Translations under genes and position numbers: made by a program | Shown here: in pieces, positions 1 to 58,677 of the stretch | How positions within the stretch are numbered: position 1 is the first letter of the stretch | Layout of the letters: each line of letters opens with the position of its first letter | The notes under the pieces: generated by a model | Told to the model about the DNA's origin: nothing | Database searches by the model: none | The model's input: only the letters and a program-made list of their open reading frames with translations | From: Psammoneis japonica | Taxonomy: Eukaryota | DNA: 64,000 nt | Assembly (NCBI GenBank): GCA_008632985.1 | Contig: QPGO01000094.1 | Location: 106,721 to 170,720, forward strand | Direction: 5' to 3'

Positions 1-162
1 AACAAGCTCGACATGGGTCTTGGCAATCCAGCCAACAATGCCAACAGGGCCCAAGTCTAAACAGTCCACATGGTTTGGTGCCTCAGCTGGGTCACAGAGA
101 TGGCACTTGCATTCCATCTTCTTGACCTGGTGAAGATCTTGGATGCCGTCTTGGATGCTCAG

Positions 163-1023
163 TTAAAATGACACAGAGCCTGTGTCATCCGGCAGCATGC
201 AGTCCATCTGCATGATCTTGACCAGACACAGAGTTTTGGTCACAAGCTTGGTGCAATTGTGGCCAGGGTGGGACTCAAGCAACAAAGCCTTGAGCTTGTT
301 TTTGGCAGACTTAACTTCAACAAGAGCACTTTTGTCACAACCATCCAGGACCATCATCAACAACACTGACCCTGGAAGATCTTTGAAGTTCTTTGCATGG
401 GTGAAGTTCACTTTCATCTTCTCGCAGAACACTTCTGTGATGCAAGTCTTGTCAAGCAGTTGTGAGAGACTGATGTCATCTGTCTCATGCTGCTTGTAGC
501 CTTGGTCACCAGAAGCCTTGGAATGAGTCTTGTGTGCTCCTTCTCAGGGTCGCTGACAGCAATGGCATGAAGACAGACAAATGGGAACATGACCTTGCTG
601 TTAGATTTCTTGAAATGGCAGAAGGTTTCCTGCCCATGTGACTCAATGAGGTCTTGGATGGTCTTGACAAAGTCTTCCTTGTCCAGTTTGGCACTTGGAC
701 CATTGGATGGCTGGATTTGACCATTGAACTTTGAAGCAGTTGATGAGGTGACTTGTCCACAAAGGGTTGGCTCAATGGATCCAACCTGACTCTGCTGACA
801 ACAAATGATCATCATCAGGACAATCCTTCCTCACATGCCCAACCTCATTGCATTTCCAGAATTTGATCTGCTTCTCCTTGTTCTGCACAAAACTTGCATC
901 CTCAGGTTTCTTCTTGTTCATCCTGCAGGCATCCAACACCTGCAGTGCCTCCTTGCTCAAATTGGGACAAATGTCAAACCCCAGTGAAAACTGTTGATGC
1001 AGATCTTTCAAATGACATGCCAA
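163..1023 (-). mobile_element. Degenerate gag-like retrotransposon relic
   Basis: Zinc-knuckle-like KFWKCNEVGHVRKDCP (ORF 772-1023), plus gag-like helical fragments in ORFs 414-815 and 163-432; heavily mutated. Confidence 0.35.
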
Positions 1024-4000
1024 TGTTCCTTGGTGCCATCAGCATCACCGCTGACAACTTGTTCCTTTCTTCTTTGTTCTGGGTGCACCATCATCAGCAT
1101 CCTTGCCAAACCCATCTTCTTTCTTGTGATGAGTGGCCTTTGCACATTGTCAAACAATTGCATTGAATGCCTGTGCCTTCTGTGTCTTCTGTGTCACACT
1201 CTGTTTTGCATGGTGACCACATTGCTTGCCCCAGATTGCCTTGTCCTTCTCCAACGTGGTGTCTGCCAATGGATGCTCTGATGCTTTTGGCTTGCTCTCC
1301 TGCCTCAGAGACACCAATGTCTTCATCTCCACCAGCCCAAACATTCTTCCAAACACACTTGCTGATCTTCCTTGTGGCTTTTGTGCAGCCATCTGCCTGT
1401 CATCCCAACTTGGCAATGGTGTCATGCACCCAATCCTTTTTAAATCTTTTGTTCTTCTGCACTCAGCTGTGTCCTTGCCCATGTTTTCTGGGACTTGTGT
1501 TGGAGCATCACAGCTTGCCCACAGTCTTGTGCTCAGTCTCGCCAACCCCAACACAACCTTGCCTCACCCTCTTTCAGCAGATCTTTGGCAGCTCTTCTTC
1601 AACAGGAAGGCCCTCAAAAGATTGTTTCTCTGCCTTCATCCAGCCAGCTTGTTTGCCACAATCTTCCAAGAAAAGAAGTGCTTTTGGATTCCTGTCAACT
1701 TCCCAGCCTGCCTTCACCTTTGGATTCCTGATGCCTTCCCAGCCTTTAAATGTCACCACTCCTTTGGGTGTCATGCTGTGACTTTTTGGCTTCTGTGTTG
1801 GAGTTTTGTGGCTGGCTCACCAAGGAGTTCTTGGAAGTTGGTTGGGGATGCAGGGGGTCTGATGTCCATTGTGGCTTGTGACATCTGACAGGTCTGCAGA
1901 GGGCATTGGCAGGCAACATGCTTGGGTGCAGAGAGGCAAAGACATGGGTGCTTTCATTGTTTGGGATGAAGTGGATGGGGTTGGGGAGGTGGCAGACAAT
2001 TTGTGGCAGGCTTGGGGTTGATGGGTGTGTGTTTTCAATTGTGCAGTTTTGTGTCTGCAAGTTCTAAAACTCATCTGTTCTGTTTGTGTGCAACACACCA
2101 GGCAAGTTGACATCAATGCTGCTTGGGCAATTTGTGTCATCCATGCTGTTGCCAATGGAGGAAAATGTTGGCATGGACAGCGGGGCTCCAAGTGAGTTTT
2201 GGGTGGTGTGCTTGGATTCTGGGGGCACACTTTGGCTGTGCTCATCAAGGCAAGGTTGTCATGTGGTTGCAGTTGAGAGTTGTGTTGCAGGGGGTTTGCA
2301 TCTGTCAGGCACCAGTCATGAGGGCTCACAGAAATGCCATGTGAGCTGCCTGCCTGTGCTGGATTCTGAGTTTGGCTGGGCTTTGTGGTGGTGTGGCAGG
2401 AAATGTGATTCCTTGGAGAGTTGAAGCTTCTGTTGAGTTGGGGCAGACCCACCACAGGTTGCTGTTGGTGCTGATTTTGCTGGTGCCATCATCAGCATTG
2501 TTGGGTGAGAGGGTCACATCCTCTGTTGTGGTTGTGGTGTCACTGAAGTTGATGCTTGGCTCTTTTGAACTGCTGTCGTGTCTTGGAAAAAAAGAACTCT
2601 GTTGGAATGAGGTTTGCAGTTTGGCTGTCACCGCTGGACAAGCCATGTGAGTTGATGGCCAGGAGGGTCTGGTGGGAGATCAGCAGTGGAGGGAGACTGT
2701 CACAGCTGGAGGCAGAGCTTGAGCTGGGTTTGGAGGCACTTGGGCTTGGCGGGGCTTCACGGTGCTAAAAGGGGCAGTTGGCTCCAAAGGTGGTGAGACA
2801 CAATTGCATGGCTGGGTGGTGTCTTTTGCATGTTGTTGTTCCTCTGGGTTGACAGCATCTGTTTGATTGGCTGCTCAGATTTGAAGAAAACTGAGGCTGC
2901 TGAGTGTGGGGTGGCAAATGCTGCAACAGGTGGGCAGACCTTGGGAGTGATGGAGTTGGCAAGTGACACTTGAGAAAATTCTGTGTCCATGTTTCCCACA
3001 ATGTTGCTCCTGACAACTGGCTTGGCATCAAAGTGAATTTGAGTTGCAGGTCTGGAGGTTCACAGTCTGCCAGTCAAGACACTCACCAAGCTGTTTTTGA
3101 TTGGCCTGAAGCACACCAAGGGCATTGTTGCCAAAGCACTCTTTGCAGGGCATTTTGCATTGAATGACAGAATGGATGGCATCAGGTGGCATGACTTTGT
3201 TTTTGTTGGATTTGTTTGTGATGTCTGTGAAGTGGGTTGAATGGATTGGGTCCGTCTGACCATTCTGGGGAGTGGACAATGTCCAGGTGCTTTTTTGCAG
3301 CAGACAAGTGCAGGCTGCTGAGGCATCCAGTGTCATCTTCAGCAGGCTCATTTGGCTCAGCATTGGAGTTGCTGTTTTTTTCCTCAGCAAAACTGACATC
3401 ATCATCTTGGCAGTTTGGGGCAAGGTTCAAGAGGTGGCACACATTGTCAATGATTGCACATCTTTGGCATCTGGCTCCTGCTGCCACCAGAGGGTGGCAA
3501 CAATTGACACAAAGCACAGGTCAGTGCTGTGTGCCATCTGTGTTTCAGTGCTGGTGTTTGCAGCAGTTGCTGAGTTGTTCATCTCATCTCATCTGCATTG
3601 CAGCATTTCCAGTTCAGTGCAGAGATGGCTCCAAGTTGTTGGTGTGTGGGGAGAATGAGATGGAGCAGCCAGCATCATTGCCATTGTGCTCACTCTGCAT
3701 CATCCAGGCAGGTTGATTGCCCACATTTCCACAGGCACTTCCTGGGTTTGGCACATTTGGGGTGGTGGTGAGTGCTTGCTGCATCAGGCTTGGGGGGTGG
3801 GCATTGTGGGTGAAGAAGCAGGGGCATCAATGTTGCAGGTGAGGGCAGGGGCAGCAATCTGAGCCCTTGGCATGGTCTCCAGTTTGGCGTTGTTGGTTTG
3901 AAATTTTCTCTGAAGATTGCCAGTGCCTTTGGGCTGTTGCATTGTGGGCAATTTTGAAACTTGTGGTTTGAATCCCAGCAACAGAAGCATCCATGGAAAT

Positions 4001-6697
4001 TGGTTCATCCACCAGTGGGGTCAGGCATGTTGAGGGAAGGTCTGAAGCAGAAGTTCCTTGGATTCACTGGCAGCTTGGAGGGGTTGTTCCCAAGGTTTGC
4101 TGGGGGTTCTGGCTGTTTGGCATGATGCTGCAATGTCTGCTTGGCATGGGACTGGAGTGCTGGGGAATTGCTGCAGGCGCAAGTGTCATCAGGAAAGTTG
4201 GGTGGCTTGGGCAATTCTGATTTGGTGGATTCCATGAAGAAGTTCATTCCTTGAGTGGGGTTTCTTTGGTTGCCTGGTGCTTGTTTTCTCATGATGCTGT
4301 TGGCGGCACTTGAACCTTGGTGTCAGAGCTTGTTGAGGGATGTTTTGCTTTTGCAGGCTGCACTCCACAACTGCTCAAGTGCTGCGAGCTCTTCTTGTTT
4401 CAAAAGTGTGGTGGAGGAGCTTGGTGGGGTGCAGCCATCACTTGTGAGTTGTTCCCACTGGTTGAAGCTTGGAGATTGTTGTGAAACACAGCAACAACAT
4501 TTGAGTTCCATGCAGATGCAGCTTTGTGACAGATTGGTGCTTGGCCTTGCCATCTCATCCTCGTGGTGCCTGAGAACTCTTTCACAGTGGAGGCACAATC
4601 TGTGACTTTTGTGATGACTTGAGTGTGGGCTGTTTTGTCATCTTTGCCAACATGATGAGGTTGGCACTTGACCACAAATTTGTCATGAGAGCAGTTGTCA
4701 AGGGAGATTTCCATGGAGGATTCCATGGCAGAGCATTCCCTGGCAGTGATGAGGATTGGTTGTGGGGCTTTTCCAAAGCAGTCTTTGAGCATTTTGCCAT
4801 TGTCCAAGAAGGAGAGGTTGCTCACAAAGGTTCCTGGGGTGATCTGGTTGCCTTTGTGGTTGTTCACCCTGGTGTCAGCTTTGTTTTGCAAACTTCTTCT
4901 GGGTTCTGGTTTGTCAAAGTGAGTCAGGAAAGCACGTGTTGCATCTTTGGGACAGAAAGGTTGGATCTGGTCATGCTGAAGACATCTGCTTAAAGAATGG
5001 GGTCATTGTCCTTGGCTGCAGGTGTGTTGGTGGCTGTGTTGCATGTGTTGGTGGGCAGAGAGAGGCAGAAAGCAAATTGTGCAGTCCTTTGCTTTGGGTG
5101 CAGTGGCAACGCACTTGATGGGTCAATGGTGGGTTGAACTTGAGTGTGGGTGGTGATGCCATCATCATGGAGCAAAGGGCTGGGGTTGGGGATGGGCTGT
5201 CACAGGCTAGCCTTTGTGAATTAAAATGAAATTTCAGCAAGGTTTTTGGGATGAAAGAGCTTGGCACAGAGTTTCTTGTCTCATGTCTCCTCAGCTCAAA
5301 GGGTGGTGAGGGTGCTGGAGAGGGAAAAATGACAAGAAATTGCTTGAATCTTCTTGTTCAGAGCAAGGCAGTGGCTGACAAGGTCAAGTTGTTCCAAGAA
5401 TTTGTTGAAGGCTCAGTGTCAGCCAGCAACAGGAGCTGTGATGTCAGGGGCTTTCTGAACTTTGACAGAGACATTCTTGTTGCCACCAAGTTCTTGCTGC
5501 ATGAAATGAGTTTTCTGCAGCACCTGCACACTGCCATTTTAGTGCCCAGTTGCTGTTGTCATCTTTTGAACTCTGCAACACATCTTCGTTTTGCATTTGA
5601 CACAGTGCTCTCTTTTGCAGTCATGGCTTTTGATGATTCCCGGCAAGAAGGTGCGCTGTGTGGGCAAACCTCTTTTTGACTCATGTTGGAAGGTTTCCAT
5701 CCTAGAATTTCAAGTGCTTTTCCAAGACAGCAACACTTCTGGGCTTGAGCTTCTCTTGCAGCTTTTCTCTCAGATCAAGCACCACAGGGCTCAAGCTGTT
5801 GACAACAACTGCATCAAAACCAGAAACGTCAACTTTCTGCAGACTGTGCAAGATGAAGCTGGTCAATGACCAATTGGAGACTGGACAAGTCACCAAGCAG
5901 CAGCCCAAAGCAAGGTGCAGCACTTTGGACAGAGGTGAAAAAACAATGCAGAAAATCAGGGATCATTGTCAGTGTGTCACTTTTCATGTGACCACAGCAC
6001 AAAGTCCCTGGAAAGGACCAGAAATCAAAGAAACTCACAAGGGTTTATTTTGCATCCAATGCCAACAAAACCCTCTCCAGCCACTCAAAAGACAATTCAA
6101 CAGTCACCACTGCCAAGGTCAACAAACTTCAATTTTCAATTTTTCACCTCAAGACAATGCAACTCTTTGGAGATGAGCAAGTGAACTGGTTTTCTTGGTT
6201 GCAGAAATGCAGAGTCCATTCTCTTTTGAAAGGTTGGAAGACTTGCAGCTCCTGCCCCCACCACTGATGACAGGAAGAAGGCTGAGAAGAATTCCCAGAT
6301 TGAGTGCAAAGGCACCTCAAAGTGCAGCTGCAAAAGACAGGGTGCACTCCAACTCCAGAATCGCCAGCCATCTCAAGCAGCTCTTGGCCTCACCTTTCAC
6401 TTCCCTGTCCACCCTGGTCAAAGCCCACCAGGAAATCAAGCCAATGTTTCAACCTCTTTGTGACAATGATGGAAAAAGAACCCCATGAACAGTGCACCAA
6501 CCCTGTTGTGTTTGCCATGTTAAGATGCATCAAAGTGCAACATGCTGTTTTTTCCAAATCAGGGACATTTGAGTCCAATCAACTCACTCGACTGTCGCAC
6601 TTTGTTGTGGTGAAGTTTCAGCCACACAGGCAGACACCGGGAATGCTTGGAGCAGCCAGCAGCATGATGTGGCAATGTTCACAAACAAATGAATGTG

Positions 6698-6916
6698 CCC
6701 ACAAAACTGAAAAATTTGCTCACACAAAAAATCGTCAGAAAAAAAAAACTGGCACATCTTTCAAACATTCACGATCACCCACAAAACTGAAAATTTTGCT
6801 CATGCAAAAAATCATCAGAAAAAAGAAAAACTGGAGAGATTTGCAGACCACAAATGCACACCCACAACTGAAAATTTTACTTGCTAAAAAAATTGCCAGA
6901 AAAAACAAGAGCTGGC
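6698..6916. repeat. Three degenerate ~80-bp tandem copies of an A-rich unit
   Basis: cacaaaactgaaaa(a/t)tttgctca...aaaaaatc(g/a)tcagaaaaaa...ctgg at ~6700 and ~6780, with a more diverged copy at ~6863. Confidence 0.7.
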
Positions 6917-9900
6917 AATGGGGGTCATTTGAAAATGTCGCGTCAGTCACAACCAGTTCTTTGCATGAGGAAAAATGCAAAATCATGTGGAAATGTGCAC
7001 AATGTCAAGCAAGAAAGTGATCAGAGCCAATGACTTTTCAAGAACTGAGCTGAAACATCATCTGATCAATGGCGCTGGCGCCTTCACCATGTGAGTCAAA
7101 ATGCTGTTGATCAGTTGGCCATTCAGCTGATTTCCTGAGAAGAGCTGTCGACATTCAGATGAGGGTGGATGGACAAACCAACAATGGTTGTTTTTGGCGC
7201 AATGTCTCTGAGGATCCCCAAGCAAAAATCATCAGAAGCAAAACAGCAAAGGAGAAAAATTGGCATCACTGTGATGAAAGAGTGCTGTGGCACAAAAAGG
7301 TTTTTTGGCCCTCCGATCTTTGACAGCACTTGGCCCTGAGGACAATTTCAGGATGAAAGCTTGTGGATGCAACAAACCAGAAAGTTGCAGGTGTGTGGCA
7401 AACTAAAAAGTTCAGCTGCCAATGGAACAAAAACAAGCTGCTGAACTCAGCAACACACCAACAAGCAAAATCAATGTCATTTCTCTTTGTGAAACAAATC
7501 TTGATTTGAGTCCTGACCAACAAACAATTGGTGGAGTGCAGGCACATTTTGAAGCACATGTGTGTGCCTTTGCTTGTTGTTGACAGATGATGCCATGAGC
7601 ATGCAAAAGGAGCCGTTTGAACATGTCAACATGGACCAAGCTGATGTTGTCCATCAAGTGAGTTCTCTTGTGTGATTGCATTGTCGGCATTGTTGTCATC
7701 ATGTGTGTTTTGATTTGTGCTCATTGTCATCTTTTCCAATGACTGCACTTTTGCATTGCATGCTCAAGGAGTCATGAACTGCTTTGCAAAGAATGCTCTC
7801 AAGCATGTCAAGAACAGCATGGAGGATGCCCTTGGTGGTGGAATGCAAGGTGACACCAGCCATTCATTGTGGTGCAACAAGACCAAGGGTTGGAGGAGAA
7901 CAGTGCCTTCAATGTTCTTGTTGTCATTTTTGCAATTGCTGTGCTTTTCTCAACTTTCAAACAAAAAACAGTGAGTCAAAACACATGACAGCCATTTTTC
8001 ATCAGAAATTTTGATTGTTCACAGCATCACAACACAGAGACCACACAGTTGTCACAAGACCCTTGTTTTCTGCTTTTGCCAATGATGCTGGTGGCATCAA
8101 GGACTGGCATTTGATGGGAACCTCTGTTGAAAGCAAAGGCCCAATGGGATGAAAGTCACAATGATGCTGCCAATCAGGGACTTGTTTCCTCCAAGAAAAG
8201 CAAGAAGAAGAACTTGGATGTTTTCAGAATGGGTGGAGGATGATGGGAATGAATCAGATGAGGACACATTTTTGGATTGACCACTGAGTGACTTTCATGG
8301 CTCTTCATGATGGCATTCATGCAAATCCTTTCTCTGTGCAACCCCAGCAAGGTCCGCACATGTCATTGTGGAGACAAGTTGCCTCCATCAGAAATGCCAA
8401 AAATCTCTGTCTGGCACTGATTGTTTGCTTCATGATTGGCAGATGCTGGTTGCTGTGGATTCTCAAGGACCCCACCTTGACAGTGCTCTGTGGTGTCACA
8501 GTGATTCCAAAAGCAAAGATGCTTTCTGTTGTGGTGGTGTTGGCTGCATTGGCTGGCATTTGCAATTGACTGCTCAACTTGGACATTGAGCAACACAAAC
8601 TCTTTTGTGTCTTTGGGTCCTTCTGCTTCTTCTTTTTCTCCATCATTGCATTTTTGCTTGTGGGTGGCAAGATTGGTTTGGCCAATGACAACCCTGGCCT
8701 GACTTGCTTGTTGCTTGGGATGGATCTGCTGTTGCTCCATTGATCCTTCATGAACTCCAACTTTTTTCACTGGAAGACTGCCAAGGCCAGTTGTGGAGTC
8801 CAATGGTGCATGGTGGCCACGGCCCAAGTCAGAAGTGTGTCCTTGGCCCCGCAGTTGCAAATCAACACATGACCCAACTTCTCATTCATGGGGTGGCCAA
8901 AGAAGAGCAAACTGTTCTGGGACCATCATTGCGTCAAGGCATTTTTGCCATTTCATGCACAATGCGTGCTTCTTTTGTTGTGCATCATTTTTGTGCCATT
9001 TCATTGAGTTGGTGATGCCCAGTGCATGAAGCTGGCTGTTTGTGTGCAGATGAAGACTAAAGGCCAGACTGTTTGTGTAGATGTCATCACATTGGTTGGA
9101 TTTTTTTTGCAGCTGTGAAGCACGACGCAACCTCGGTGAGTCAAGAATGTTTCAAGCAGGCAGCGCTGACAACTTCATGTCTCTGCATTCTGCACTCCAT
9201 TTCAACATCCATCACAAAAAACTCAGATGTAAGATCATGATGATTGATTCATTCAACCAACATCAACAACCTTCAGTGACAACAAAAATGGCAACATTTG
9301 TCTGAATTTTGCAGTGGCTGACTTGCAATCACTTCATTTGGCAGAAAACAATGTCTTCATTCAATCAATTTCAAATGGTTTGACACAACAACAAAACCTG
9401 CAGGAGTGCATCAAAACAAGCAGTTGCTCTTAATCTCCCATTTTCATTTCATCAACTGTGCTGCAACACAGACAGTCATTGATCTTGAGAGCAATTTTTT
9501 GTTTGTCCTTGTGAGTGCACAGTTTGAAAGAATCTTTCACTTGTTTGCACAAATGTTCATGGGGAGCCCATCAACAAACAAATCAGACAGTGATCATTTT
9601 TTCTTGCACAAAGAGCACTGACTGTCGAACCAGCAACAAAAGCTCTCATGCCACAAGACATGTGCGCAAACAACTTCATGATGCACTGAGAAAAATGCAG
9701 AATTTGCAATGGACTGCCATGTGTTTTTTGTGCAAGTCACCATGACAGTGTGTGGTTGTTTTTGGCAACTTCTTTTGACTTTGAAACTTTGGAAGTGATG
9801 CAAATCGTGACAATGTGAAGCCAGCATATTGTGCTCCAAAGGATTTTGCAGGTCTTGAAGAACTGCCAGAAAATCAGTGCACGCTGGGTTGCCAAAATGG

Positions 9901-12900
9901 ATCTTCATGACACAGAAATGATTGCACAAAAGATGACATGATTGCAGCAGATTTGATGGTGTCATTTCAATGTTGGGTGCCTTTGTGACAGGGGGAGGGG
10001 AGGGGGGCAAACAGCCTGAGAAGAGGGTGAAAAAGCTTTCTCCTCCCAAAAGTTGGCTGCAATCTTGACAAGTCTGTGGATGCTGCATGCACTGAACAAA
10101 TGAGAAATGAATCCTGTGGACTTGGTGCAATGTGACAGTTCCAATGGAGGTGTTTGCATTTCCAAAGATGTTCATCATCTTGTGTGTGGTTGTCACTTTG
10201 GGAGTTTGCTTCTCATTGAGAAAATGTTGTTCCCTGGAGCATGGGCAAGGCATTGAAAAAAACTTTTTTCTTCAATGCTTTTGATGATGGAGTTCAAGAC
10301 AATTGTTGTGCATGACTGCAAACAACATGTGAAGAAAGTTGGTCAGAAACCAGCCCAGAGAAAAAGGAGATCACAAATCATTTTCAGAGCAGCAGCTGAC
10401 CCAGAGACACGCTCTCATCCCAGAAGTGTGTGGCGAGAGTTGCTGCCAGGCAGCCAGTGGTGAAAAGCCTTGCACACCACCTCTTCTCAGCTTGGTTTTG
10501 CCTGTTTGGGGACTCCCCAAAATGGCCAGGACAAGGGGGAGAGTTGCTTTGCCTGTTTGGAGAAAACCCAAGAAATGAGGGTGATTTTGTGAGAAGGAAC
10601 ACCTGAAAGGGGTCAGGGGAGGGGAACAAACCCAAATGCAGTGCAGCAATGTGCGGCAATTAAGGCCAGGTGGGTGTGCATTTAGACTTGTGAACTCTGT
10701 GTGAATGTGTGCGTGCATGTGTTTGACGACCATGACTGATGCATCAACACATCAACACAAAGCGGCCCCTTGTGGTGGAGCAAGAAAAGAGTGAGCATTG
10801 CCATTGAATCATCCACATCAACATTGCTCATGTGCAGCTCTGTTTTTGCCTTGGCCTTTGCTCTAGAGCCCTTGTGGTTTGCATTTGTGACCACACAACA
10901 CCAGAAGAAAAAATGATGCTCTGCACTCTGCACAAAAGATGGGTCAAATGGAAGAACAAACATTGTCAATCAACCCACCATGTTTTCATCAGTCATGTGA
11001 GGTTCTAATTTTACCTCTGCTTTCACTCTAGATGCCTCATGGCTTGCATTTGTGAATGCATGACAAAAGAGTGATGTGAACGATCCACTTCATTCTGCAC
11101 ACAAGGTGCGTCATTCGGATCAATGAGGGCAACTGCTCAATCTGCCACATTGTTGTCATCAGATGTGTGTGGTTGTGCTTTTGCCTTGGCATTTGCTGTG
11201 TGCCTTGTGGTTTGCATTTGGGACACTGCACAACAAAAGAACACAACTGAAGATCAGCGGCACTGGTGTTCTGCACACAATCCATCACAGGTGTGGCTGC
11301 TTCCATCTCATCTTGTGTTTCATGCTGCAAATCCCATTCAATCAATGCCATTGAATGCATTAAATGGTGTCATGATGGATTGACAAAAGTTGTCACAAAT
11401 GGGACTCAAAAGTGCCATGGTGTGTTGCACCCTTTTTGTTTGTTGCGGTCAGTCACGTGTGGGGCTTGTTCACACGCCCCCCGCACGCAGAAGGTGCAGA
11501 AAGGCATGAGAGGGGAAGCACAGGGAACTCCCAATGTGCAAATTTTTGTTCAAGCATCAAGCACACGTGTGGCACAGTGTCATTTGTGGCAATTCCCTGG
11601 GACTTCACACTTCCCGCAGAAATTGCAGCAAAAAGTGGCAATCCCAGGAAATTTTGGGAAATCCCGTGGCAAAACCAAGAAACTGAGCAGCACCTCTTCC
11701 AGCAACATGAACAACATTGGTGGACCCTTCATGTGTGGCATTGAAGTGTGCACACAACACAAGCAACTGCACACAGGTGGCAGCAGCCAAAGCCCCCCCC
11801 CCCCCCAACGTTCTTTTTGAGTGACAGTGTTTCCTCTCTCCTGCTGCCCCAATGTTTTTCAGCTGATTTCCAAACTCAAAAGCACCTGCCCTCTAACATC
11901 TGCTCTGGAACATGACATGCATGGATCACATGCAGTCTTGTTGGCACCACTGTTCACAAAACTCTGCCACATGTTGTCGTTGTGGTGGATGCGGTGCGAG
12001 AGATTAGATGTGGCAGCCGCTGAACCCAACAAGGCCAGACAGATGATTGAGTCCAACTGGTCAACTCAAATCGATTGTGTCTTCAGCTCGTGCTGGAAAA
12101 CTTGGCGATGCAATTGAATCGTGATGTCCATTGTGCACACTTTTCCCACTTGGAAAGCATGGGCAAATGTGTCTCTCACAGGAATTCAAACAGCCCCAAC
12201 GCTGAGCTCGTGCTTTTTGGAGGCTCATCCTGTCTGTCCCATCAACAAATGGGCGAAGCAAGAAGCAACATGATTTTTGTTCTCACTTCTCATTCAACAG
12301 GCACTTTGTGAAGGGAAGCCAGTGCTGATTGGTTGCTCTTTTGTCTGTGATCATTGCATGGAAAGACAATGGTGGTGCAAACATTTGACGCTGATGCGGC
12401 AGGCCGGCGGTCAAATGCTGGTGCTTGCCAAAAAGAAAGTGTTGGATTGGGATGAGTGGCGCTCACCCATGATTCTCATTGGGTGCGGCCCACCCACACA
12501 AATGTCACATCATTCTTGTGCATCAATCAAGAATTGATCCAGAATCCTTGAGTCAGGACTGGGTTGAAAAAGGACTTGCTGCTTCCCCCCCTAAAACTTT
12601 TGTGGCTCTGCAGACGCCTTGCCAAACCTTTGTGTTTGGACTGTCAGAGATGGGCGTCTTGACCTGCATGTTCTTTGTGTTTTTTGTTTGCTTTGCCCTG
12701 TCATGCAACCAAAAGAAACTCACAAACTTGTTGTCTCCTTGCATCTCTCAACAGATTGTCACACACAGTGGAGGTGCAGAAGAAGAAGCTCAACGGATGG
12801 AGATGCTTTTGAGAATTTGGGAATTGCATTTTTGGATTGAGCTTGCATTCACATGGACCAGTCTTGTGGAGGAATTGAAGGATTGTTTGGAGGAGCAGGA

Positions 12901-12948
12901 AACAGTCCAGTTGACTGCTTGGGATAGAAAGCAAGCACTGGTGCACTT

Positions 12949-13460
12949 GTGGACGCTGTCAAGAAATGGCTGAAATTCAACCGCAGGACTGACAAGAAGG
13001 CAATGCGCGATCACACGGGTGGCGGCTGCAAGGAGATTAATCCCGCCTCGTGCTCTGGAAAGTTGAGTGCGGAAATGAAAGGCCATGTTGACGCCACAGT
13101 GAAAGTGATGGGCAAGTCTTGGAATTGTCCAGTCTTTCAGGGTGCAGTTCACCGGGGTGCACCAACATTTGTGGTGCACGTTTCAATTCGTTGCATCCTG
13201 GAGCCACCTTCATGGACCCGGCTTTTGTGAGTGCCTCTCTGAAAGAGACTGTTGCTTGTGGCTTTCATGGAAGCAAGAAGAACGCACTCTTCAAAATTGA
13301 AAGTGGATTGGGTGTGGACGTGACAAAAGAATCCAAAAGCAAGGCTGAGTCCGAAATTCTTTTTTGACCTGGTGCTTTGTTTGTGATCACGGCGGTTGAG
13401 GAACACGACGATCCCGAGTGCACAAAATGGAAATTTGTTTCAATGCAAGAGATTCATTAA
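12949..13460 (+). pseudogene. ADP-ribosyltransferase (R-S-E clade, VIP2/C3-like) pseudogene
   Basis: Reads RDHTGGGCKEIN...PVFQGAVHRG (frameshift) ...FMDPAFVSAS...LFKIESGLGVDV...AESEILF*PGALFVITAVE. Reverting CA/TG to TA gives DYTGGGY, VYRG and STS; ExE is intact. Confidence 0.75.
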
Positions 13461-14334
13461 TTTTGATGGTGAGAGACAAATGGAGCTTTGGATTTGTGCG
13501 ACAAATGGCAAACAGAAAACTTCCCGCTCCCTCCCTCCGGAGGTGAGGCCATGGGGGCCCATGTGGCATGGACGGGAGTGCTCATTCCCATCGTAGAGTG
13601 TGTGTTGTGGTGTGGGAAAGTGCGCTGCTGTTCACATTGTCAGAAGTGATGGCATTCACATTTACAGAGAACTGTCATTCGCTGTTTATTTGCATGCAAC
13701 CTCTCCTTGTGTGACATGGCTTCGCGCCCAACCTGTTGCACAGAATCCATCTTGCGGCTCGTCTTGCATTGCAATCTCCACAGTGTTCCAGGGGTGGCAA
13801 CATGTTTGGCACTTGGTGAGCAACTCCAGCAACTGCCAGCAGGAGCAAACTGGCTAAAGTTCTGGACTCAGTGAAGCGGTGGTCAGCAACTCTGCCAGTG
13901 CAGTGGTTGACGCGGCTCATGCACCCTTTTCCTTGTGACGAAACTTCAACATCAGGAGTCAGTGAGTCACTGGGCTCTTTTGAATCCTGACAAGATCTCA
14001 CAGTGTGCAGCAGTTGGGACAACGTCTTACATGTCACCAGAACCACGCAATGGCAACGTTCCCATTTTTTAGAGTGGCAACACGCAAATCATCATTGTTG
14101 TCTTTTGTCAACTTTTGTGTTCATTTGAAAGCCATGTCTGTTCAACAGGGCCCTGACGTGCATGCAATCTTGTGCACCTCCATGACACAGTGAATCTGCC
14201 ACCACAGCATTTCTGTCTCCGCAAGTTCAAATTTTTCTGTTGCCCGCTGCCAGCTCTGCACAAACCTGCAGTGCCTTGTGAGCCCTCTCGAGTGGAAAGC
14301 ACAGAACGAACCATGCGTGCCGCATGAACAGGGC

Positions 14335-14470
14335 CCTCTACTCTCTAGAGTAGAGCTGGCTGCTGCTCTCTAGAGCTAGCTAGAGTAGACTCTCTATCTA
14401 GCCACCACCGGCACTAGCTAGCTACTGTAGCTGCTAGAGCCATTCTCTAGAGAGAGAGAGAGAGAGAGAG
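14335..14470. promoter_or_regulatory. CTAG/TAGAG-rich cluster with an (AG)11 tract upstream of MGD
   Basis: Many ctag, tagag and tagctag motifs, AG repeat at 14449-14470, about 280 bp before the ATG. A regulatory role is inferred from position only. Confidence 0.4.
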
Positions 14471-14751
14471 TGCCGCAGCAGCTACAGTGGCCGCCAGCCA
14501 CGTGGGCGTGCATCGCCGCATTCCGCATTCCGTTTCAACATCCATCACACAAAAAACACGAACGACGCATCTACCGTACCGTATCATAGCATATCATCAA
14601 TCATCAACAACTTTCAGTGACAACATCGGCCCTTCACCCTTTGAACTTGTTGGATTCGCTGGCCTCGTCAACGGCTGTAACCAAGTTGTCTGACGTGAAG
14701 TCTAATCACGCTAAGATCATCGTTGCTGCTTCTCTACTGATAGTCTGAATC

Positions 14752-24995: not shown

Positions 24996-25349
24996 GGTTT
25001 TTCAACTGATGAAAGGAACGACAAGAAAACAGTAACTAACGTGTGTTAGTCACGACAACTTGAGTATCTCAAGTTAGCACGACACGAGTCTCCGACCACT
25101 TTTTTCTCTCTATGCTAGACAGAAAAAAAAATCCCTCAGGTGATCGGTCGACTGCACCGGTAGTCTAGGTCTAGACTCGTTGACGAACGAAATGTGACGA
25201 CTCACCGTACCGGTATCCGCGAGAAGGTCAGAAGATATTTGTGTATGCCAAAGTCGTCAAGGAAGGTTTTGCGGGGTGTGGCAGCAGAAAAGATGTAGGC
25301 CATCCAGGATGGTGAGAAGTGTGTAGGACCTTCTAGCTAGAGTAGACGC

Positions 25350-27290
25350 CAATGAAGATGAAGATGGCGGTCAAGCATGAGCAACAACCTTCCATTTGAC
25401 TTTGCCCTTGAAGGTTGATTTGGCTTTGCTGCTGGCCACTTCCACAACAACATTTGCCACAGATGGTGGCTTGATGAAGTCATGTTTGTTGTTTGTCATG
25501 CAGCAGAAGGTGCGGTCATCAACTCTGACATTGAAGGAGTCGGCGTTGAAGTTGTGATCACGGTGATCTTTGCAGTGGCAGCCATGTGAGCAGGGTGTGG
25601 TTTGGCATGTGGCAGGCTGTGATTTGAGGCCCATGAGTTGGAGTGCAGCTCCATTGCACACTGTGGAGCATTGGCATTTTCATCAGATGCAGCGCCTGTT
25701 GGTCTTGAGACAGTTGCTTGGGTTTTCTTGGTGGTCTGCGACTTGTCAGGAAGCACTCCATTGCTCGTCACAGCCAGGAACACAGGAGTGGAAAGGAGAG
25801 TGGCCAACTCAACAGTTCTGCCATTGTGCAGCAGATCATGTTGAGTGCACAAGAGAATGGCAGGAAGACTGCACATGTGCCGCAAAGCAGCCACAACTGC
25901 AAGCAGTGCTTGACTTGTTGTTGTGCAGTGCTGGCCAACACTTGCCCTTCATCTGACACATCTTGTGCACCAATGTTTGCCATGGAAGCAGTCAGGTCTG
26001 ATTCATCCTTGTCCATGATGGAGGTGCAATCCTTGGCAAGGTGTGAAGCCCAGCATTTGTGCAACTTGCAGTGCTTGCATGTGCAACCCTCTGCTGTCTT
26101 GGCATGTGGGTGTCCCTCTTTTGGAGTGGTGTTGCACCAGGCATGTTTTCTGGAGAACAGATGCTTCTTGCACCCATCAGACAGGATCTTCAATTTCACC
26201 CCACAAGAGACATGCCTCAAAATGTTCTGCTTCCTCTTTGATCAAAATGCTTCCCAACCCATCAAAGGTTCTGGGTGCTGCTGAGCTCAGCCTGCCTCTC
26301 CACAATGTCCGGATGGCTGTCCTGGAGCCGGCATGCAGATCCAGTCTGATTGACACACTGCAGCACCTGCTGCATTCTCAGGAGGTGCGGGCAAAACAAC
26401 CTTGCCATTCAAGCAATCTTGTCAGCCCTCATCACCTCAACTCTGCCCAAAGTGACGGCGCGTGCTTGCTTCCACATGGGTGCACCTTTTTTCGAATGGC
26501 AGCTGCCATGTTCCAAGACCCAAAGAGAAAGAGGGCACAGCAACACAACTCACGGAGAATTTCAGAGGTGACAGACCTGTTCCAAGAGTTCTTGATCTGG
26601 CAAAGATTGGTGACAAGAGATTGCTGCACCAGCTGCAGCCCCCCTGATCTGGATCACCAATGTTCTTCTTGTTCTTCTTGCAATCACTTTGTGTCTTCTT
26701 CCTTTTTTCCAGACTTGCAGCCCAGCATTGAAAGGTGAAGTCTGAAGATTTGGAGAATGAATTTCAGCCATTGTTCCAGAGTGGCAATGTGCCAGAAGAA
26801 TTGTCAGTGAGAGCCGGTGACTCTGCCAGTCTCCAGTCATGTGACACCATGCAACATTTAACAGCTGACCCAGATCCCAGCAAATCAGTTGCCTTGACAT
26901 CTGTGAATGTGGGTGGTGTCATTGATGGCGCACTTTGCAGGAACCAAAGTGGCGTGCCGCTGCACTGAAATGTCCCGGTGTTGAGCACAAGTCATTTTGC
27001 ACCATGTCTCTGCCACCTGCTGCATGCCTCTCAAGTCCAAATCACAGTTGATGTCATCTTCCTCCCTCATGTTGTCACAGCTGTTGTGCAAGATGAGTGC
27101 AGTGCTGCTGTGTCATGTGAGGCATGATGCTGCTGTTGTTTCTTGGCCGCTGCAATGGACTTCACAAGGGAGAATGCTGCCAGAGCTAAATCCAAGACAA
27201 TGCCAAAGTCCTCAACCCTTGACAACCTGCAACAACAAAACATCAAAACACCTTGAGTGTGAGCTGTGATGCACGGGGGTGGCAGGTGAG
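25350..27290 (-). mobile_element. Degenerate copia-like gag-protease relic, TpA-depleted (copy at ~41330-43270)
   Basis: CKHCKLHKCWASHLAKDC knuckle-like motif followed by protease-like DSFNVRVDD..CMTNNKHDF...GKVKW. Boundaries approximate. Confidence 0.5.
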
Positions 27291-27349
27291 GTCAGCATGG
27301 TTGTCATTTCAAAACATTTGTTCCAACTCCAGCAGCTGACAATGAGCGT

Positions 27350-28180
27350 CATGTCCCAAGAAGTGCGCTTCATTTTCATTGCCCTGTCATCAAAATTTTC
27401 TTCACCTTGTCTTCATAAAATTTTCTTCTGATGCAACACAAACATGTTTCCCCCACCAAGACAATGTGCAGAACTTTGCGCAAATGAGACAAATCGTCAA
27501 TCACCACATTTTTCATGCTGAGGCAGTGCATCACAAACAGAGTGTGCAGAATTGTGCTGAACATTCTCCACACTGAACCATCCATTCCAGCTCCAGCAAA
27601 CAATGCATGGTGTGTCCGAAGAAGTGTGTGTCCAATGGGAATCTTTCGAAAATCACCCGTGACGCAAAAAGCACAAAATGATTGTGGACACCTGCAGAAC
27701 CTGCACGTTTTTGTGCTGAAACTGTCATGTTCACACAATTTGTGCAAAAATGGACTTGACTGTTGTCGGGTCAGGTGTGTTTTTGCAAATGCATTGAAGA
27801 AAAACACACCTGGTCAGAAAACAGTCAAGTCCATTTTTTGCAAAGTTAAAATTCACCAAGGACAGACAGACAGACTTTTCAACAATTGTCTTGGTGCTGT
27901 TCTGCACACTTCTGCGCAAATGACTCCACAGCATGAAAGATTGCTGTTCATTTTCATTGCCCCACCATCAATTTCTCCTTCACCTTTCTTGGTGTGGGAA
28001 GCATGTTTGCAATGCATCAGAGGAAAACTTTGTGAAGACAAGGAGGAGAAATTGCTCCTCCACCTTTCTTGGCACCGGAAACATGTTTGTGATGCATCAG
28101 AGGAAAACTTCATGAAGACAAGGAGGAGAAATTGATGATGGGGCAATGAAAATGACATGCACTTCTTCGGACACATCATC
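27350..28180. repeat. Foldback-like structure with ~100-bp inverted arms and an internal ~98-bp hairpin (copy at ~43332-44162)
   Basis: ~27371-27451 is the reverse complement of ~28077-28154. Hairpin at 27744-27841: gcaaaaatggacttgactgtt...caggtgtgttttt / aaaaacacacctg...aacagtcaagtccattttttgc. Confidence 0.8.
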
Positions 28181-30604
28181 ATTTTTCATTGCAATGCACT
28201 GCCTTTGCTGCAGTGTGAAAAATGATGTGTTTTGCCGATTTGTCGGCAATTTTTTCATGTTCGTGGCCGGTTGAAGGAAAAGAGAAAAAAAGAGGGGATT
28301 CGACCATTGAACACACACACAATTGACCATGCAACCAGGGCCAGAGTTGTGCTGGCTTCTTTTGGTCCAGGGTGGTTGCTGCAGGTGCAAAGAGATGTGA
28401 CACTGAGTGTGTGCCACCAAGCTGAGCAGCCCAGCTTGGGTGTCAGAGCCAAGCCCTGCCAGGCCAGCTGCCCTGGCTCCAGCTCTGCTCCTCCCAGTGT
28501 GCGCGAATTGTTGAAGGAGCACCACATTGACTCAAAGGCTGTGTTTTAAGTGGGCAGAGAGAAAAAAACTGTCATCTTGACTGGTGCTTGCTTCAGACCC
28601 TGCATCATGAGTGCAAGCTCCTCTTGAGAAACAAGCAAGAACAGCCATTTTTGGTGCCTCTCTTTGGTTGCCCACTTGGCCGCATTGCCAACAAATCTTG
28701 AACCCAACTTTGCTCACAGTTTCTTCACTCTTCAACCACAAAACAAATGGTGGGCACATGCCATGTGGCTGCTTGGCAACAAGAATGTGATGCCAAGCAT
28801 GTGCTGCACACCAAGGAGCCAAGCAGCCCAGCTCAGCTTTGAATGGAGCCCCAGGACAGCAGCCAACTCTGGGTGATCTCAGCATGGTTTGCTTGTTCAA
28901 GCTGTGCTGCACTCACCCCACAATGCTCTGTGTTGTGGTGGCTTCTTGTTGCAAGCCGTGGCTGAGTCAGCAGCCAGCGCCAGGGGCCCATCTTGCAAAG
29001 GCCAAACACACATGTTGACCCTGTGCAAAGCTGTGTGAGGGGCCAGGCACAGGAATTTGAAACAATGGCTTCACAGCCATTGGTCCCAAGTTGTCATTTG
29101 GTTGGGAGCCATTGCTGAGGGGCTGTGAAGTGAGGGGTTGGGAGCCCAGCCAGGAGCTCACACTCTGTCACAAAGTGCTGCCACAGCTGTCTTTGCATTG
29201 CAGCCAGCCAGGTGTGGTTGACCCCAAGTTGGTGCTTGATTTAGAGTGACTGCCAAGGAGCTGTGAAGTGTGGGGTTGGGCAGTCCAGCCAGCTCGCACT
29301 CTTTGCTGACAGCAGAAAGTGCTGTCGCAGCTGTCCTTGCATTGTGGTGCCAGCCAGGTGCACACATGGCCAGAGCAGCCTTGGCACGTCCTGCTGACAA
29401 AGCTGGCAAAGATGGCAACTCTTGTGGTTGAGCCACCTGGCATGCAGGAGTTCTGGGCACACTCCTGGGAAGTCAAATGGGAAGGAGGGCTCAGCATTGC
29501 CGCCAGTGCCAGGCACAAATGTCAGCTTGTCTTGAGAGAGATTTGAGCCCACACAGCCCCAAGTTGGGTGTCTTGGCTGGCAAGTTAGAAAGCATTCTTG
29601 AGCACATTCTGGGATGTGGGCAGCACTGTCACCAAGAGAGCTGCTCTGCAGAGGAAGAGGGAAACAGGCAACAACATTTTGCAAGAACTGTTTTGTGTCA
29701 ATGGTTGGGTGGGATGGGGCAGCATCTGGACTTTGACGGAGCATTTGGTGGACAAAGCTTGAGCACAGAGAGCTGTCCACTCAAGCTCCACAAGTGGCAC
29801 ATTTCAAAGGTGACACCAATGTGTTCATGCATCAACATGCCTCAAGCTGCAAGTCGCACAAAAAACTGCCACCAACCTTTCTCAACCAACCACCATCATG
29901 GACAGAACAGGTCAAGAGGTTCGAAACAAGAGTGATTGCTTCATTGACTCTCTTCTTGTTTCATGCATTCAAGAGCTTGTTCTTGTCCTTCTCAGGTGTT
30001 TGTTGTGCATTGTTGTCTCTTTTAATTCAAGTGCAAAGAGGAGTCACTTTTCTTGTTTCTGTCTCTTGAGATGTTGTTGGTTGTTGAGTGATGCAATTTT
30101 TGTTGCTTGTCACATTTTTGGAAATGTTGGCAAACCCGATCACTGCTTGATTGTCAGCCCATTTGCTGCTTTGAGTCTCCATGGCATGAAATGCCACAAT
30201 TCCAGAGCCCTCAATTGTTTCATCAAACGCAGTGCTTTGAAACACGTCCAACATCAACTCGACTCAGTTGAAATCCCAGTTTGTGGGCGATGAAAAATCA
30301 CGAATGTCAAACAAATGGCTGTTTTCGACATCAAGATCCCCGAGTTCAATCCAAGTGTGGCGGCGCACCTCACAGCTTGTGGCCATGACGCACACAAGCA
30401 TGCCTCATTGTTGTCATCACATGTGCTCACATCGAAAATGCCAACAGATCAAAGTTCAGGAAAAGGATGGAGCGCAAATTCATTTGTGCATTCACCAGAG
30501 CGGCACTGGCGCAATGACACCTGCGGCAGAAGCGATCAAAAATCCTCACTCATCGTTGACATTTTGTGTTGCTCAGAATTTGAAATCTGACCACCACCGT
30601 CAAG

Positions 30605-30738
30605 CATTTAGCTTTCTTTGTGTCGAAGTGGAAATGACACTCAACGATTTACACTGACCATTTAGCTTTCTTTGTGTCGAAGTGGAAATGACACTCAACG
30701 ATTTACACCAACCATTTAGCTGTACTTTGGCTCGAAGT
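30605..30738. repeat. 54-bp tandem repeat, two copies plus a partial (copy at ~46587-46720)
   Basis: catttagctttctttgtgtcgaagtggaaatgacactcaacgatttacac at 30605 and 30659. Confidence 0.9.
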
Positions 30739-31119
30739 CAGACAATGAGATTGGGTTATGGGCTTGTCGTTAACCAGCCACGAGCATGAAATCTTTACCG
30801 ATTTGTCTCATCTACGTTCTGTGTATGTAGTATTCAGTATCATCTTGGTAATGTTTCCCGATTTGTCTCATCTACGTGAAGTCCTGCGCACTATCCTAGT
30901 ACGGGAAACACATCTTTTTCATACTAAGGCAGTACGTTAAAAATAGAGTATGTAGAATTATACTGAACATTCTCCGTACTGAACTATCCGTTCAAATGGC
31001 GCGCCGTCGCTCTTGACAAACGAACGAAAAACCCCAAACCGCAGACAGCAAAAAACGTAAACACGCAACGTCGCTTAGCTTCCAGCTTCTTTGGTCCGGA
31101 CGAGATACAATAGATAACG

Positions 31120-57600: not shown

Positions 57601-58677
57601 GCACTCCTGATCTGTGCACTGCTGAAGGTCCTGAAGAGGGTGCACCCGAGTGTGACACTCTTGCTGAGTCCCAAGGATTCTCGCGCCATTCTGTCTTGGG
57701 TGAATTGGTCTTTGCCTGCTCCTGTTGTCGTTTGGACATTGGCCATCCCATTGTCACCTTGTCCAAGTTTTCCAAGGCACCAGCTGAGCTCCATTGTGAA
57801 TCACTCAAGCGTGGCCAAGCATTTGCGGCGCACCAAACATTGGGGGCTAACCCACAAGAAGTCTAAACGCGATCCCGGCCTGCCTCCTCACGATTTTGAA
57901 TGGCTTGAGGATGACCCATCTCTCCCGGATTTTCCTTGTGCTGTTGACCTTTTCCAACTTCTTGGCTTCATTGATGCGGCACATGGCGGTGAACCATGGC
58001 GTCGCCGTTCTGCTGCTGGGCACGCGCATGTCCTTGCTGGTGCTGCGATTGACTGTCGATGCTGCACGCAAACGATTGCCGCCACTGGTTCCATGGAAGC
58101 TGAGTTCCTCGCGGCTGTTGCTGGTGCAAAACAGACCCTGCACCTCCGCATGGTTCTGGAAGAATCGGGCTTTCCCCAGCGTGATCCTGCTCCCTTGCAC
58201 ATTGATGACTCCTCTGCCATCCAGATGATCAACAACAAGGTGCCTACGGAGTGATCCCGTCACATTGACATTCAACATTTTGCTGTCCAAGACTGGCATG
58301 ATGCAGGCAAGATTGTCACTCGACATGTCCCGGGTGTCATCAACCCTGCTGATGCACTGACCAAGGCCGTGGGTTGGACACTCCATTCCCGCCATGCCCG
58401 CCGCTTGATGGGACACTGCCGTTGATTGTCATCGGGTTTTGTTGTGGATTGAGTCTTGGGTGTGTCTCTGTTTTATTTGTTTCTTTGTTCTGCTGTTCTG
58501 GTCCTCTCTTTTTATTCGGATCGTCTCTTTCTTTCTTGTTGAGCATTGCATTGCTCATCAGGGGAGGGTGACAGACATCCGAGACGGGGAGTACACTCCC
58601 TTGTGTCGGACAGACTAGCATAGACAGCATGGAGAGATCCGATGATCTCTCCTTTGCTCACTTTCTTTCTCATCTAG
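51677..58677 (+). mobile_element. Ty1/copia LTR retrotransposon, internally complete but inactivated
   Basis: Identical 109-bp direct repeats starting TG; PPT aggggaggg before 58569; PBS-like GGTTATGAGC at 51849; domain order gag-PR-IN-RT-RH. Confidence 0.96.
52051..58425 (+). pseudogene. Copia gag-pol with frameshifts, a stop and pervasive Tyr to Cys/His changes
   Basis: Knuckle CVVCGDNHLFHEC; protease AQIDAGA; LWHQCLGH; integrase VDF...VDQGGEL...GPVER; RT QGHPEAG and RQVDDF; RNase H FIDAAHG, EAEF, HIDI and NPADALTK. Confidence 0.93.

Follow-up and report, generated by a model that had tools for sequence, protein, structure and literature searches.

The DNA studied here comes from the diatom Psammoneis japonica (GenBank assembly GCA_008632985.1, contig QPGO01000094.1, positions 106,721 to 170,720 of the forward strand) and is referred to below, at its full length of 64,000 nucleotides, as the window. 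Blocks of this window, one of them a degraded copia retrotransposon, have lost nearly all of their TpA dinucleotides (T followed by A on the same strand). The loss has a direction, from TpA to TpG or CpA. It is specific to the TpA context, affects both strands, is confined to the blocks, can be separated from a loss of CpG in the same DNA, and recurs to graded extents in relatives of the retrotransposon found elsewhere. We consider it probable that the blocks are nuclear repeat and retrotransposon DNA of the diatom, rewritten by two transition processes: a TpA-specific A:T-to-G:C hypermutation and CpG decay. The first of these would turn TpA into TpG or CpA on both strands, and would have run here nearly to saturation.

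Blocks without TpA

Observed-to-expected ratios (o/e) of dinucleotides were calculated in 1-kb intervals, with expectations taken from base composition, and block borders were read from the positions of every TA. TpA o/e is 0.00-0.10 across 1-14000, 26001-30000, 42001-46000 and 52001-58000, versus 0.39-0.93 in the genes between these stretches. The blocks and one of their borders are as follows:

1..14338, no strand: block A, TpA-erased, CpG-poor repeat DNA that continues past the left end of the window
14339..14480, + strand: right border of block A, where normal TA density is back within a CTAG-rich stretch
25344..30608, no strand: block B, TpA-erased and CpG-poor, within a duplicated unit of ~16 kb
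41324..46590, no strand: block B', the duplicate of block B carried by the second ~16-kb unit
~52023..58473, + strand: block C, a degraded Ty1/copia retrotransposon, TpA-erased and moderately CpG-poor

Block A contains 43 TA where 993 are expected, and 140 CG where 796 are expected (CpG o/e 0.18 overall; by position, 0.03-0.19 up to ~11000 and 0.27-0.56 over 11000-14000). Its last isolated TA lies at 14070, and TAs are dense from 14339 onwards. Block B has 8 TA for 343 expected and 74 CG for 315 expected (CpG o/e 0.23); a single run of 1.5 kb is devoid of any TA, whereas outside the block a TA occurs every few tens of bases. Block B' also has 8 TA for 343 expected, at the positions observed in block B shifted by 15982. 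In block C, 25 TA are found for 365 expected, with a CpG o/e of 0.59. The flanks (14339-25343 and 30609-36179; 16,576 bp) serve as a reference, with 650 TA for 1065 expected (o/e 0.61) and a CpG o/e of 0.95. Judging from exact TA positions, block borders are sharp to within tens of bases. Within the blocks TpA o/e is 0.02-0.07, so that 93-98% of the TpA expected from composition is gone, and TpA makes up 0.15-0.39% of dinucleotides. The near-absence of TpA and the sharp borders had been noticed in an original prediction based on the letters of the window, and its coordinates prove right to ~100 bases. That dinucleotide picture was correct for the TpA deficit and left out the CpG decay seen in the same blocks.

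The gain of TG and CA in the blocks matches their loss of TA and CG. Taken together, the four pyrimidine-purine steps sum to 0.2365, 0.2443 and 0.2363 in blocks A, B and C, and to ~0.2376 in the flanks. Since this total is unchanged, TA and CG became TG or CA through transitions alone: the purine/pyrimidine pattern of the blocks is normal, and only the choice within pyrimidine-purine steps has collapsed onto TG/CA. The G+C content of the blocks is 0.42-0.53 and their AA o/e is 1.2-1.3. Among the 76 TAs surviving in the blocks, the base before is T in 53% and the base after is A in 51%, compared with 19% and 18% in normal DNA. Strand-coordinated patches found no support when the succession of TG and CA was examined by runs tests (z of -2.3, -0.35 and -0.87 for the blocks; -1.2 and -1.9 for normal DNA).

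A degraded copia element records the direction of change

Block C lies within an insert between copies of the ~16-kb unit, and its recognizable domains occupy shifted frames:

51789..58567, + strand: copia-bearing insert (6.8 kb), between ~16-kb unit copies; its first ~230 bp are at normal TA density
~54382-56199, + strand: integrase
~56202-57863, + strand: reverse transcriptase
~57900-58254, + strand: RNase H

Pfam matches in this block (gag-pre-integrase, SH3_retrovirus and RVT_2) are weak, with E values of 1e-5 or weaker. A full phmmer scan returned 1770 relatives, the best with 47% identity and an E value of 3e-150. Every named member of this copia lineage comes from a pennate diatom (Nitzschia inconspicua, Cylindrotheca fusiformis, Fistulifera solaris or Fragilaria crotonensis), and these long predicted proteins retain their tyrosines. 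Median contents of the homologues are 3.7% Tyr, 1.9% Cys and 3.9% His.

Tyrosine codons (TAY, where Y is a pyrimidine) contain TpA, and we compared the insert column by column with 141 homologues of normal Tyr content, 9 of 150 having been excluded for a Tyr content below 1.5%. A column was called conserved at 60% or higher agreement among at least 8 homologues, which gave 373 columns spanning 54520-58414. Not one of the 20 conserved Tyr is kept in the copia element: 7 have become Cys (TGY), 8 His (CAY), 2 Trp, 1 Arg, 1 Ser and 1 Phe. Among the remaining 353 conserved columns, 281 are unchanged, including Gly (38/41), Asp (21/23), Trp (10/11) and His (13/14). Part of the residues other than Cys and His may be native to the subfamily, since the closest homologue (P0121) itself carries 2 Trp, 3 Phe and 1 Arg at conserved Tyr columns. 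Further changes extend across codon borders. Eight of 14 conserved Ile are now Val, with T as the preceding base in all 8, and all four changes of Thr to Ala also follow T; these are TpA>TpG changes in which the T belongs to the preceding codon. The damage to coding capacity would then consist of Tyr becoming Cys or His, and of Ile, Thr or Met after T becoming Val or Ala. Conserved Arg, on the other hand, changed to Cys (2), Gln (1), His (1) and a TGA stop (1; CGA>TGA), all of which are CpG transitions.

As the homologues have a normal Tyr content, the ancestor of this copia element was an ordinary, TpA-bearing element, and TpA was lost about equally on both strands, the ratio of Cys to His in the window element being 7 to 8.

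On either side of the insert lies a 113-bp direct repeat made of host sequence (51676-51788 is identical to 58568-58680). This repeat is far longer than the target-site duplication of a copia element, and the arrangement resembles a join between 16-kb units more than a simple insertion.

Altered and unaltered copies within the window

Duplications inside the window provide further comparisons:

27495..27590, + strand: mutated copy of a short repeat, inside block B (0 TA, 1 CG)
30902..30997, + strand: the same short repeat in unmutated form, 300 bp beyond block B (11 TA, 4 CG)
28632..28637 and 44614-44619, + strand: two dinucleotides that are CA in copy 1 and TG in copy 2 of the ~16-kb unit

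In the alignment of the 95-bp pair (27495-27590 versus 30902-30997), differences include 6 TA>TG, 5 TA>CA and 3 CG>CA, so that 11 of 11 TA are converted. This pair and the Tyr columns bear on the idea that the elements had evolved UpA and CpG avoidance in their RNA and were never rich in TpA. Such suppression is familiar in RNA viruses, many of which suppress both UpA and CpG. Yet none of 20 conserved Tyr codons is left and 15 of them are now TGY or CAY, reading frames are broken (including by the CGA>TGA stop), intact relatives have normal Tyr and TpA, and a segment of block B has an unmutated twin 3 kb away. The conserved Tyr columns and the 95-bp pair refute a native composition, to which we give next to no credit.

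Comparison of the two ~16-kb copies gives 22 substitution columns inside the block (5265 bp) versus 12 outside it (10,349 bp). Nine of the 22 in-block differences are CpG transitions, and 4 of the 22 fall within the two adjacent dinucleotides listed above, CA in one copy and TG in the other. Such a double difference implies that, once the 16-kb unit had been duplicated, an ancestral TA or CG was hit independently in each copy.

Graded conversion among relatives and a context rule

We scanned metagenome contigs with an alignment of six close homologues and obtained 80 loci; one of the two search patterns contains Tyr, so that heavily mutated copies are under-sampled in this set. TA o/e ranges from 0.11 to 0.82 across the 80 loci, with a median of ~0.65. 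Together with the median Tyr content of 3.7%, this speaks for the original prediction: intact relatives of the copia element are normal in Tyr and TpA. Two loci stand out. The locus termed L075 is TpA-poor over its whole 4.1 kb (23 TA for ~216 expected) at a near-normal CpG o/e of 0.69, and L015 has a TA o/e of ~0.29 in the element versus ~0.69 in its 6-kb flank. At 19 conserved Tyr columns, the metagenome loci grade from all Tyr to none, and the same column is Cys in some loci and His in others, which indicates independent hits.

Fifty-six loci form one family at 80% or higher nucleotide identity, in which changes were scored against the majority of each alignment column. In L075, 84 of 96 TpA are converted (58 A>G and 26 T>C), versus 8-9% of other A and T. 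Conversion at TpA in locus L045 is 31% and 23%, versus 3-4% elsewhere, and in the least mutated copies it is 2-4%, equal to background. When A>G changes are sorted by the 5' base with both strands folded, the 13 most mutated copies show 24.4% at TpA, 7.2% at ApA, 7.4% at CpA and 3.3% at GpA; corresponding values in the 14 least mutated copies are 3.3%, 3.8%, 4.7% and 1.4%. Copy-versus-consensus A>G and T>C changes are thus strongly enriched at TpA, as the original prediction anticipated. Its broader claim, that the TpA deficit is mutational and results from A:T-to-G:C changes of TpA to TpG or CpA on both strands, is borne out by the copia Tyr columns, the 95-bp pair and these relatives. Its restriction to repeat and retroelement DNA is likewise supported, and the change is cumulative across copies.

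The 3' base has an effect of about twofold, with conversion of 33.6% at TAC, 28.0% at TAT, 16.7% at TAA and 15.5% at TAG. This 3' preference in the relatives agrees with the context of the TAs surviving in the window.

Two candidate mechanisms can be judged from the spectrum. Synthesis of the Pol eta type, which was among the candidates first put forward and which yields A>G at WA (W being A or T), is disfavoured because ApA is spared: ApA is no more affected than CpA (7.2% and 7.4% versus 24.4% for TpA), and AA is at an o/e of 1.2-1.3 in the blocks. RNA editing of the ADAR type alone is excluded because both strands are changed (Cys to His 7 to 8 in the window; A>G to T>C 502 to 404 among the relatives).

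Pfam found nothing in the flank frames of L015 and L075, and the lineage is tied to diatoms only through named database proteins. Two full copia polyproteins of this diatom lineage (P0289 and P0300), 56-57% identical to P0121, carry the NCBI label of a 'Flammeovirgaceae bacterium' metagenome-assembled genome; they probably represent eukaryotic contamination of a bacterial bin.

Two separable processes

TpA loss and CpG loss are separate processes, as seen in L075, at the right end of block A, partly in the copia element, and in the lack of correlation among copies. The interval 13001-14000 has a TA o/e of 0.10 with a CG o/e of 0.56, and values for the copia element are 0.07 versus 0.59. Correlations were tested on 48 copies, after removal of 8 near-identical twins from the family of 56. 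TpA conversion among these copies ranges from 4% to 87.5% and is uncorrelated with CpG conversion (rho 0.14, p 0.33).

Transposons of diatoms are CG-methylated, via DNMT5a in Phaeodactylum, and many diatoms carry in addition a DNMT4 related to RID, whose role is unknown (PMC9998398). The CpG part of the pattern would then be ordinary CpG to TpG/CpA decay, as expected for CG-methylated diatom transposons. Deamination of 5-methylcytosine (5mC) explains the CpG o/e of 0.18-0.59, the Arg changes and the 9 CpG transitions between the duplicates. It is unable to remove TpA, whose loss is independent and deeper (0.02-0.07 versus 0.18-0.59).

A comparable process is repeat-induced point mutation (RIP), known in Neurospora and other fungi. 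RIP also affects repeat and transposon DNA, with context-specific transitions on both strands, sharp borders and destruction of coding capacity. However, RIP turns CpA into TpA and leaves AT-rich, TpA-rich DNA, whereas here TpA is removed and CpA/TpG gained, at a G+C content that remains near 47-52%; furthermore, a copy of the 95-bp repeat lying 300 bp outside block B is untouched. The earlier statement that neither RIP nor 5mC decay explains the loss of TpA therefore stands, the direction of RIP being opposite and 5mC decay being unable to remove TpA.

That the TpA deficit shares its blocks with CpG decay may also suggest a by-product of heterochromatin, arising without a dedicated mutator from error-prone repair or replication, or from mispairing of an enzymatically modified thymine (5-hydroxymethyluracil or a base J-like residue) before A. 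A change of 'A after T' and one of 'T before A' are indistinguishable in sequence, and TpA conversion correlates with background transitions (rho 0.55), both of which agree with such an origin. We nevertheless regard it as unlikely: the WA signature of the Pol eta type is not seen (ApA 7.2%, close to CpA at 7.4%, with TpA at 24.4%), the extreme specificity and sharp borders point to a targeted activity, and TpA conversion is independent of CpG conversion among copies.

A possible mechanism and its alternatives

We propose that the TpA process works in situ on chromosomal DNA, with its effects adding up over time, as has been measured in the chlorarachniophyte Bigelowiella natans (see below). 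It would be driven by an enzyme and aimed at silenced or foreign DNA, and may thus constitute a genome defence that destroys coding capacity. The most likely chemistry would be deamination of an adenine after T to hypoxanthine, which is read as G, and the leading candidate agent would be a deaminase similar to TadA/ADAT2. The target adenine of TadA follows T/U, and its native context is UAC. Conversion is more frequent at TAC and TAT than at TAA and TAG, which fits this candidate; the strict 5' T and the 3' preference both match the TadA/ADAT2 context, as a property of the signature and not of any protein. No deaminase domain was found among the window's open reading frames (ORFs) scanned with Pfam.

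Several observations weigh against a targeted, in-place deamination of adenine. A modified thymine before A could equally start an A:T>G:C change at TpA, and the sequence cannot distinguish the two. At word size 7 the copia element shows no pair of long terminal repeats whose comparison might speak for in-place action, its only repeat being the 113-bp host duplication. Between the two 16-kb copies there is no TA-versus-TG or TA-versus-CA difference, and all 8 surviving TAs of block B are shared, which implies that the TpA process was already complete in block B before the duplication; at the CA-versus-TG sites, TA and CG are equally possible ancestors. The spectrum obtained from consensus comparison counts inherited changes repeatedly and is confounded by subfamily structure. 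The correlation of TpA conversion with background transitions in the 48 copies (rho 0.55) means that the gradient may partly be one of age. In environmental copies, A>G exceeds T>C on the sense strand by 502 to 404 (p 0.0013), a bias that a purely symmetric DNA process does not predict; no heterogeneity of this bias was found among 29 copies (p 0.73). Finally, blocks A and B contain no recognizable transposon or viral protein: Pfam on 88 stop-to-stop frames returned one ADP-ribosyltransferase (ART) fragment and chance-level hits, and PHROGs on 30 frames of these blocks returned nothing.

Some of these points would follow readily if editing occurred before integration, with a deaminase acting during reverse transcription on retroelement RNA (A>G) and on single-stranded minus cDNA (T>C), in the manner of APOBEC3, and with mutated copies being inserted afterwards. 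Depletion ends at or near element ends, both at the window borders and in L015 when the element is compared with its flank. The sense-strand excess of A>G (502 to 404, and 58 to 26 in L075) and the lack of TpA loss between the 16-kb duplicates are also in line with this scenario. But blocks A and B have no retroelement features. Conversion is near-complete (84/96 in L075; o/e 0.02-0.07 in the window), which would seem to exceed what a single passage can be expected to achieve, and the graded series from 4% to 87.5% fits accumulation. Moreover, according to the B. natans preprint, the signature arises there in place, in integrated DNA viruses without an RNA stage. We therefore hold editing before integration to be rather improbable overall, though still a serious competitor for the copia elements, and retain hypermutation of chromosomal DNA as the preferred explanation.

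Comparison with known systems

The closest known parallel is found in B. natans, where integrated viral DNA undergoes A:T>G:C hypermutation at TpA only, as determined by mutation accumulation (Mettrop et al., bioRxiv 10.64898/2026.01.13.699255). Of 302 nuclear mutations in 15 mutation-accumulation lines of this study, 231 lay in integrated giant-virus and virophage regions; 230 of these 231 were A>G or T>C, and all 230 occurred at TpA. Rates were near 6e-7 per site per generation and only some lines were affected. Elsewhere in that genome, clusters poor in TpA contain an excess of reverse transcriptase and DDE domains. As the agent, the authors suggest an ADAT2-like enzyme that deaminates adenine; they also mention that ADAR prefers a 5' U. 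The main text names neither diatoms nor CpG. It was initially thought that no system with this signature had been described; this preprint (10.64898/2026.01.13.699255) describes one.

In both organisms A:T>G:C changes occur only at TpA, giving TpG or CpA depending on the strand, and produce clusters depleted in TpA and enriched in CpA and TpG, with a normal genome around them. The targets are foreign or mobile DNA in B. natans and may be so here, where block C is a copia element, block A is partly multi-copy, and A and B lack a recognizable transposon or viral gene. Intensity is uneven in both cases, between lines in B. natans and between copies here. There are also differences. The host is a rhizarian there and a stramenopile, a diatom, here. 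The targets measured in the preprint are insertions of nucleocytoplasmic large DNA viruses and virophages that are still rich in TpA (3.3% and 9.2% of dinucleotides), whereas the DNA affected here, a copia retrotransposon and unclassified repeats, is nearly TpA-free (0.15-0.39%). CpG goes unmentioned in the main text, while CpG decay accompanies TpA loss here. The rate was measured in B. natans; in our case a rate can be inferred at most.

Animal APOBEC3 and ADAR share with the present signature a deaminase-type, context-specific transition hypermutation that disables retroelements. However, APOBEC causes C>T (G>A) and not A>G changes, and ADAR edits RNA, on one strand only, and also edits ApA, whereas here both strands are changed and ApA is spared.

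Full-text literature searches found no report of the TpA signature in diatoms or other stramenopiles, the B. natans preprint being the only report found. New here are the lineage, the targets, the saturated end state and the 3' context rule; the kind of process itself was first reported in 2026, in an unrelated alga.

Implications

With the signature present in a diatom and in a chlorarachniophyte, at least two distant algal lineages have the process, and it is no peculiarity of one strain. It affects retrotransposons as well as integrated viruses, and diatoms are a group with good genetics in which to study it. A testable sequence rule emerges: T-A-pyrimidine is preferred, and TTA and TAA resist. 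More tentatively, we may hypothesize that a defence based on DNA adenine deamination, which erases TpA from silenced mobile DNA, is common to stramenopiles and rhizarians, is perhaps old in the group of stramenopiles, alveolates and rhizarians (SAR), and is guided by the marks that also bring CG methylation. If this were true, such a defence would be the functional mirror image of fungal RIP, strong enough to leave kilobases without TpA, and its enzyme and targeting rule would be directly discoverable in diatoms, which are transformable and editable.

TpA-free blocks also have a practical consequence for annotation. TGA is their sole stop codon and they lack tyrosine codons, which leads to long spurious open frames and to escape from profile-based transposon annotation. 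The copia element of block C is an example, being barely detected by Pfam (E 1e-5 or weaker).

Reliability of the sequence

Heavily modified DNA can mislead some base-callers, and the blocks could in principle reflect a sequencing, base-calling or assembly artefact in such DNA. We used contigs built independently, at a depth of ~60-70, from a public run of one sample (X1), which may be the assembly's own source data. These contigs reproduce 1784-6833 with 3 differences, and one of them spans the border of block A (13387-16498) with 0 differences, at the same depth as genes. Contigs of 5 kb with so few differences indicate that the reads are accurate. An artefact appears extremely improbable given that the X1 contigs agree with the window at the depth of genes (with the caveat that X1 is perhaps the assembly's own data) and that the same signature is present in unrelated metagenome assemblies (L075, L015 and L045).

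A second run (X2) has almost no cover on block A; this is lack of cover only and does not count as evidence of silencing. One X2 contig joins 15911 to 15995; the 83 omitted bases have GT..AG ends and probably form an intron, located where the MGDG synthase frame described below ends. Because of this joint, X2 looks RNA-derived, though it is recorded as 'DNA?'. X2 contigs matching short parts of block A (8165-8939, 11931 and 12523) continue into CG- and TA-rich letters, and these extensions may be transcripts of unmutated relatives of block A repeats.

Over 16745-18984, contigs of X1 and X2 differ from the window at many sites (40, and 54 more), with locally two contigs of about equal depth. 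This region looks like two diverged haplotypes; by contrast, the TpA-poor 1784-6833 lies on one contig with 3 differences.

Content of blocks A and B and layout of the window

Several stretches of block A occur in multiple copies among the X1 contigs (668-2001, 6671-7337, 10006-11339 and 12674-13340), with a summed contig depth of up to 1179 versus ~69 and many contigs 90-95% alike. None of the 260 high-scoring segment pairs between the 150 copia homologues and the window falls outside 51789-58567. The longest open frames of blocks A and B are no longer than those in shuffled TA-free DNA (in block A, 238 aa versus a mean maximum of 224). The blocks had been described as transposon-rich. This holds for the copia element of block C and, as regards repetition, for the multi-copy stretches of block A; it does not extend to the rest of A and B, where no transposon protein was recognized. 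'Repeat-rich' is thus supported for the blocks, and 'transposon-rich' is shown only for block C and the multi-copy stretches.

The only Pfam match of these blocks below an E value of 0.001 is a frame of block A (13092-13364, + strand) that resembles the NAD:arginine ADP-ribosyltransferase family (PF01129), with an E value of 1.5e-6 that passes the curated cut-off. This frame is perhaps a piece of a hypermutated gene, either the host's own or foreign.

Next to block A, the frame 14749-15939 encodes an MGDG synthase, whose best relatives, with 69-78% identity, are from diatoms where named (an Asterionellopsis transcriptome and Seminavis robusta); this gene marks the window as diatom nuclear DNA. 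Most of the remaining window is taken up by copies of the ~16-kb unit:

20194-35807 and 36180-51788: gene-bearing unit of ~16 kb, tandem copies with 99.7% identity over 15.6 kb
58568-64000: third, partial copy of the ~16-kb unit, 99.2-99.4% identity

Each full copy contains a frame of 1016 aa (or 934 aa) without a Pfam match, a frame for a SUMO-like (Rad60-SLD) protein, and block B. Direct repeats of 143 nt that overlap one another, spaced by 54 and 33 nt, are found at 31813-32042 and 47795-48024, inside a 445-aa frame (31114-32451); this suggests that the frame, as predicted from sequence, encodes a repetitive protein.

An exact 15-mer, CTAGCTAGAGTAGAC, occurs at 14376-14390, 25333-25347 and 41313-41327, where 0 occurrences are expected by chance. 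It adjoins block A on the right, and B and B' on the left, which gave it the look of a boundary element. We do not count it as one, since similar CTAG-rich motifs are observed in other intergenic stretches (16381-16430, 36038-36067 and 58911-58940); the 15-mer may simply be an element common between genes of this diatom.

At the border of block B, 30609-30730 is a tandem repeat with unit starts every 54 bp. Successive units differ by TG versus CA at one dinucleotide (ACACTGACC versus ACACCAACC).

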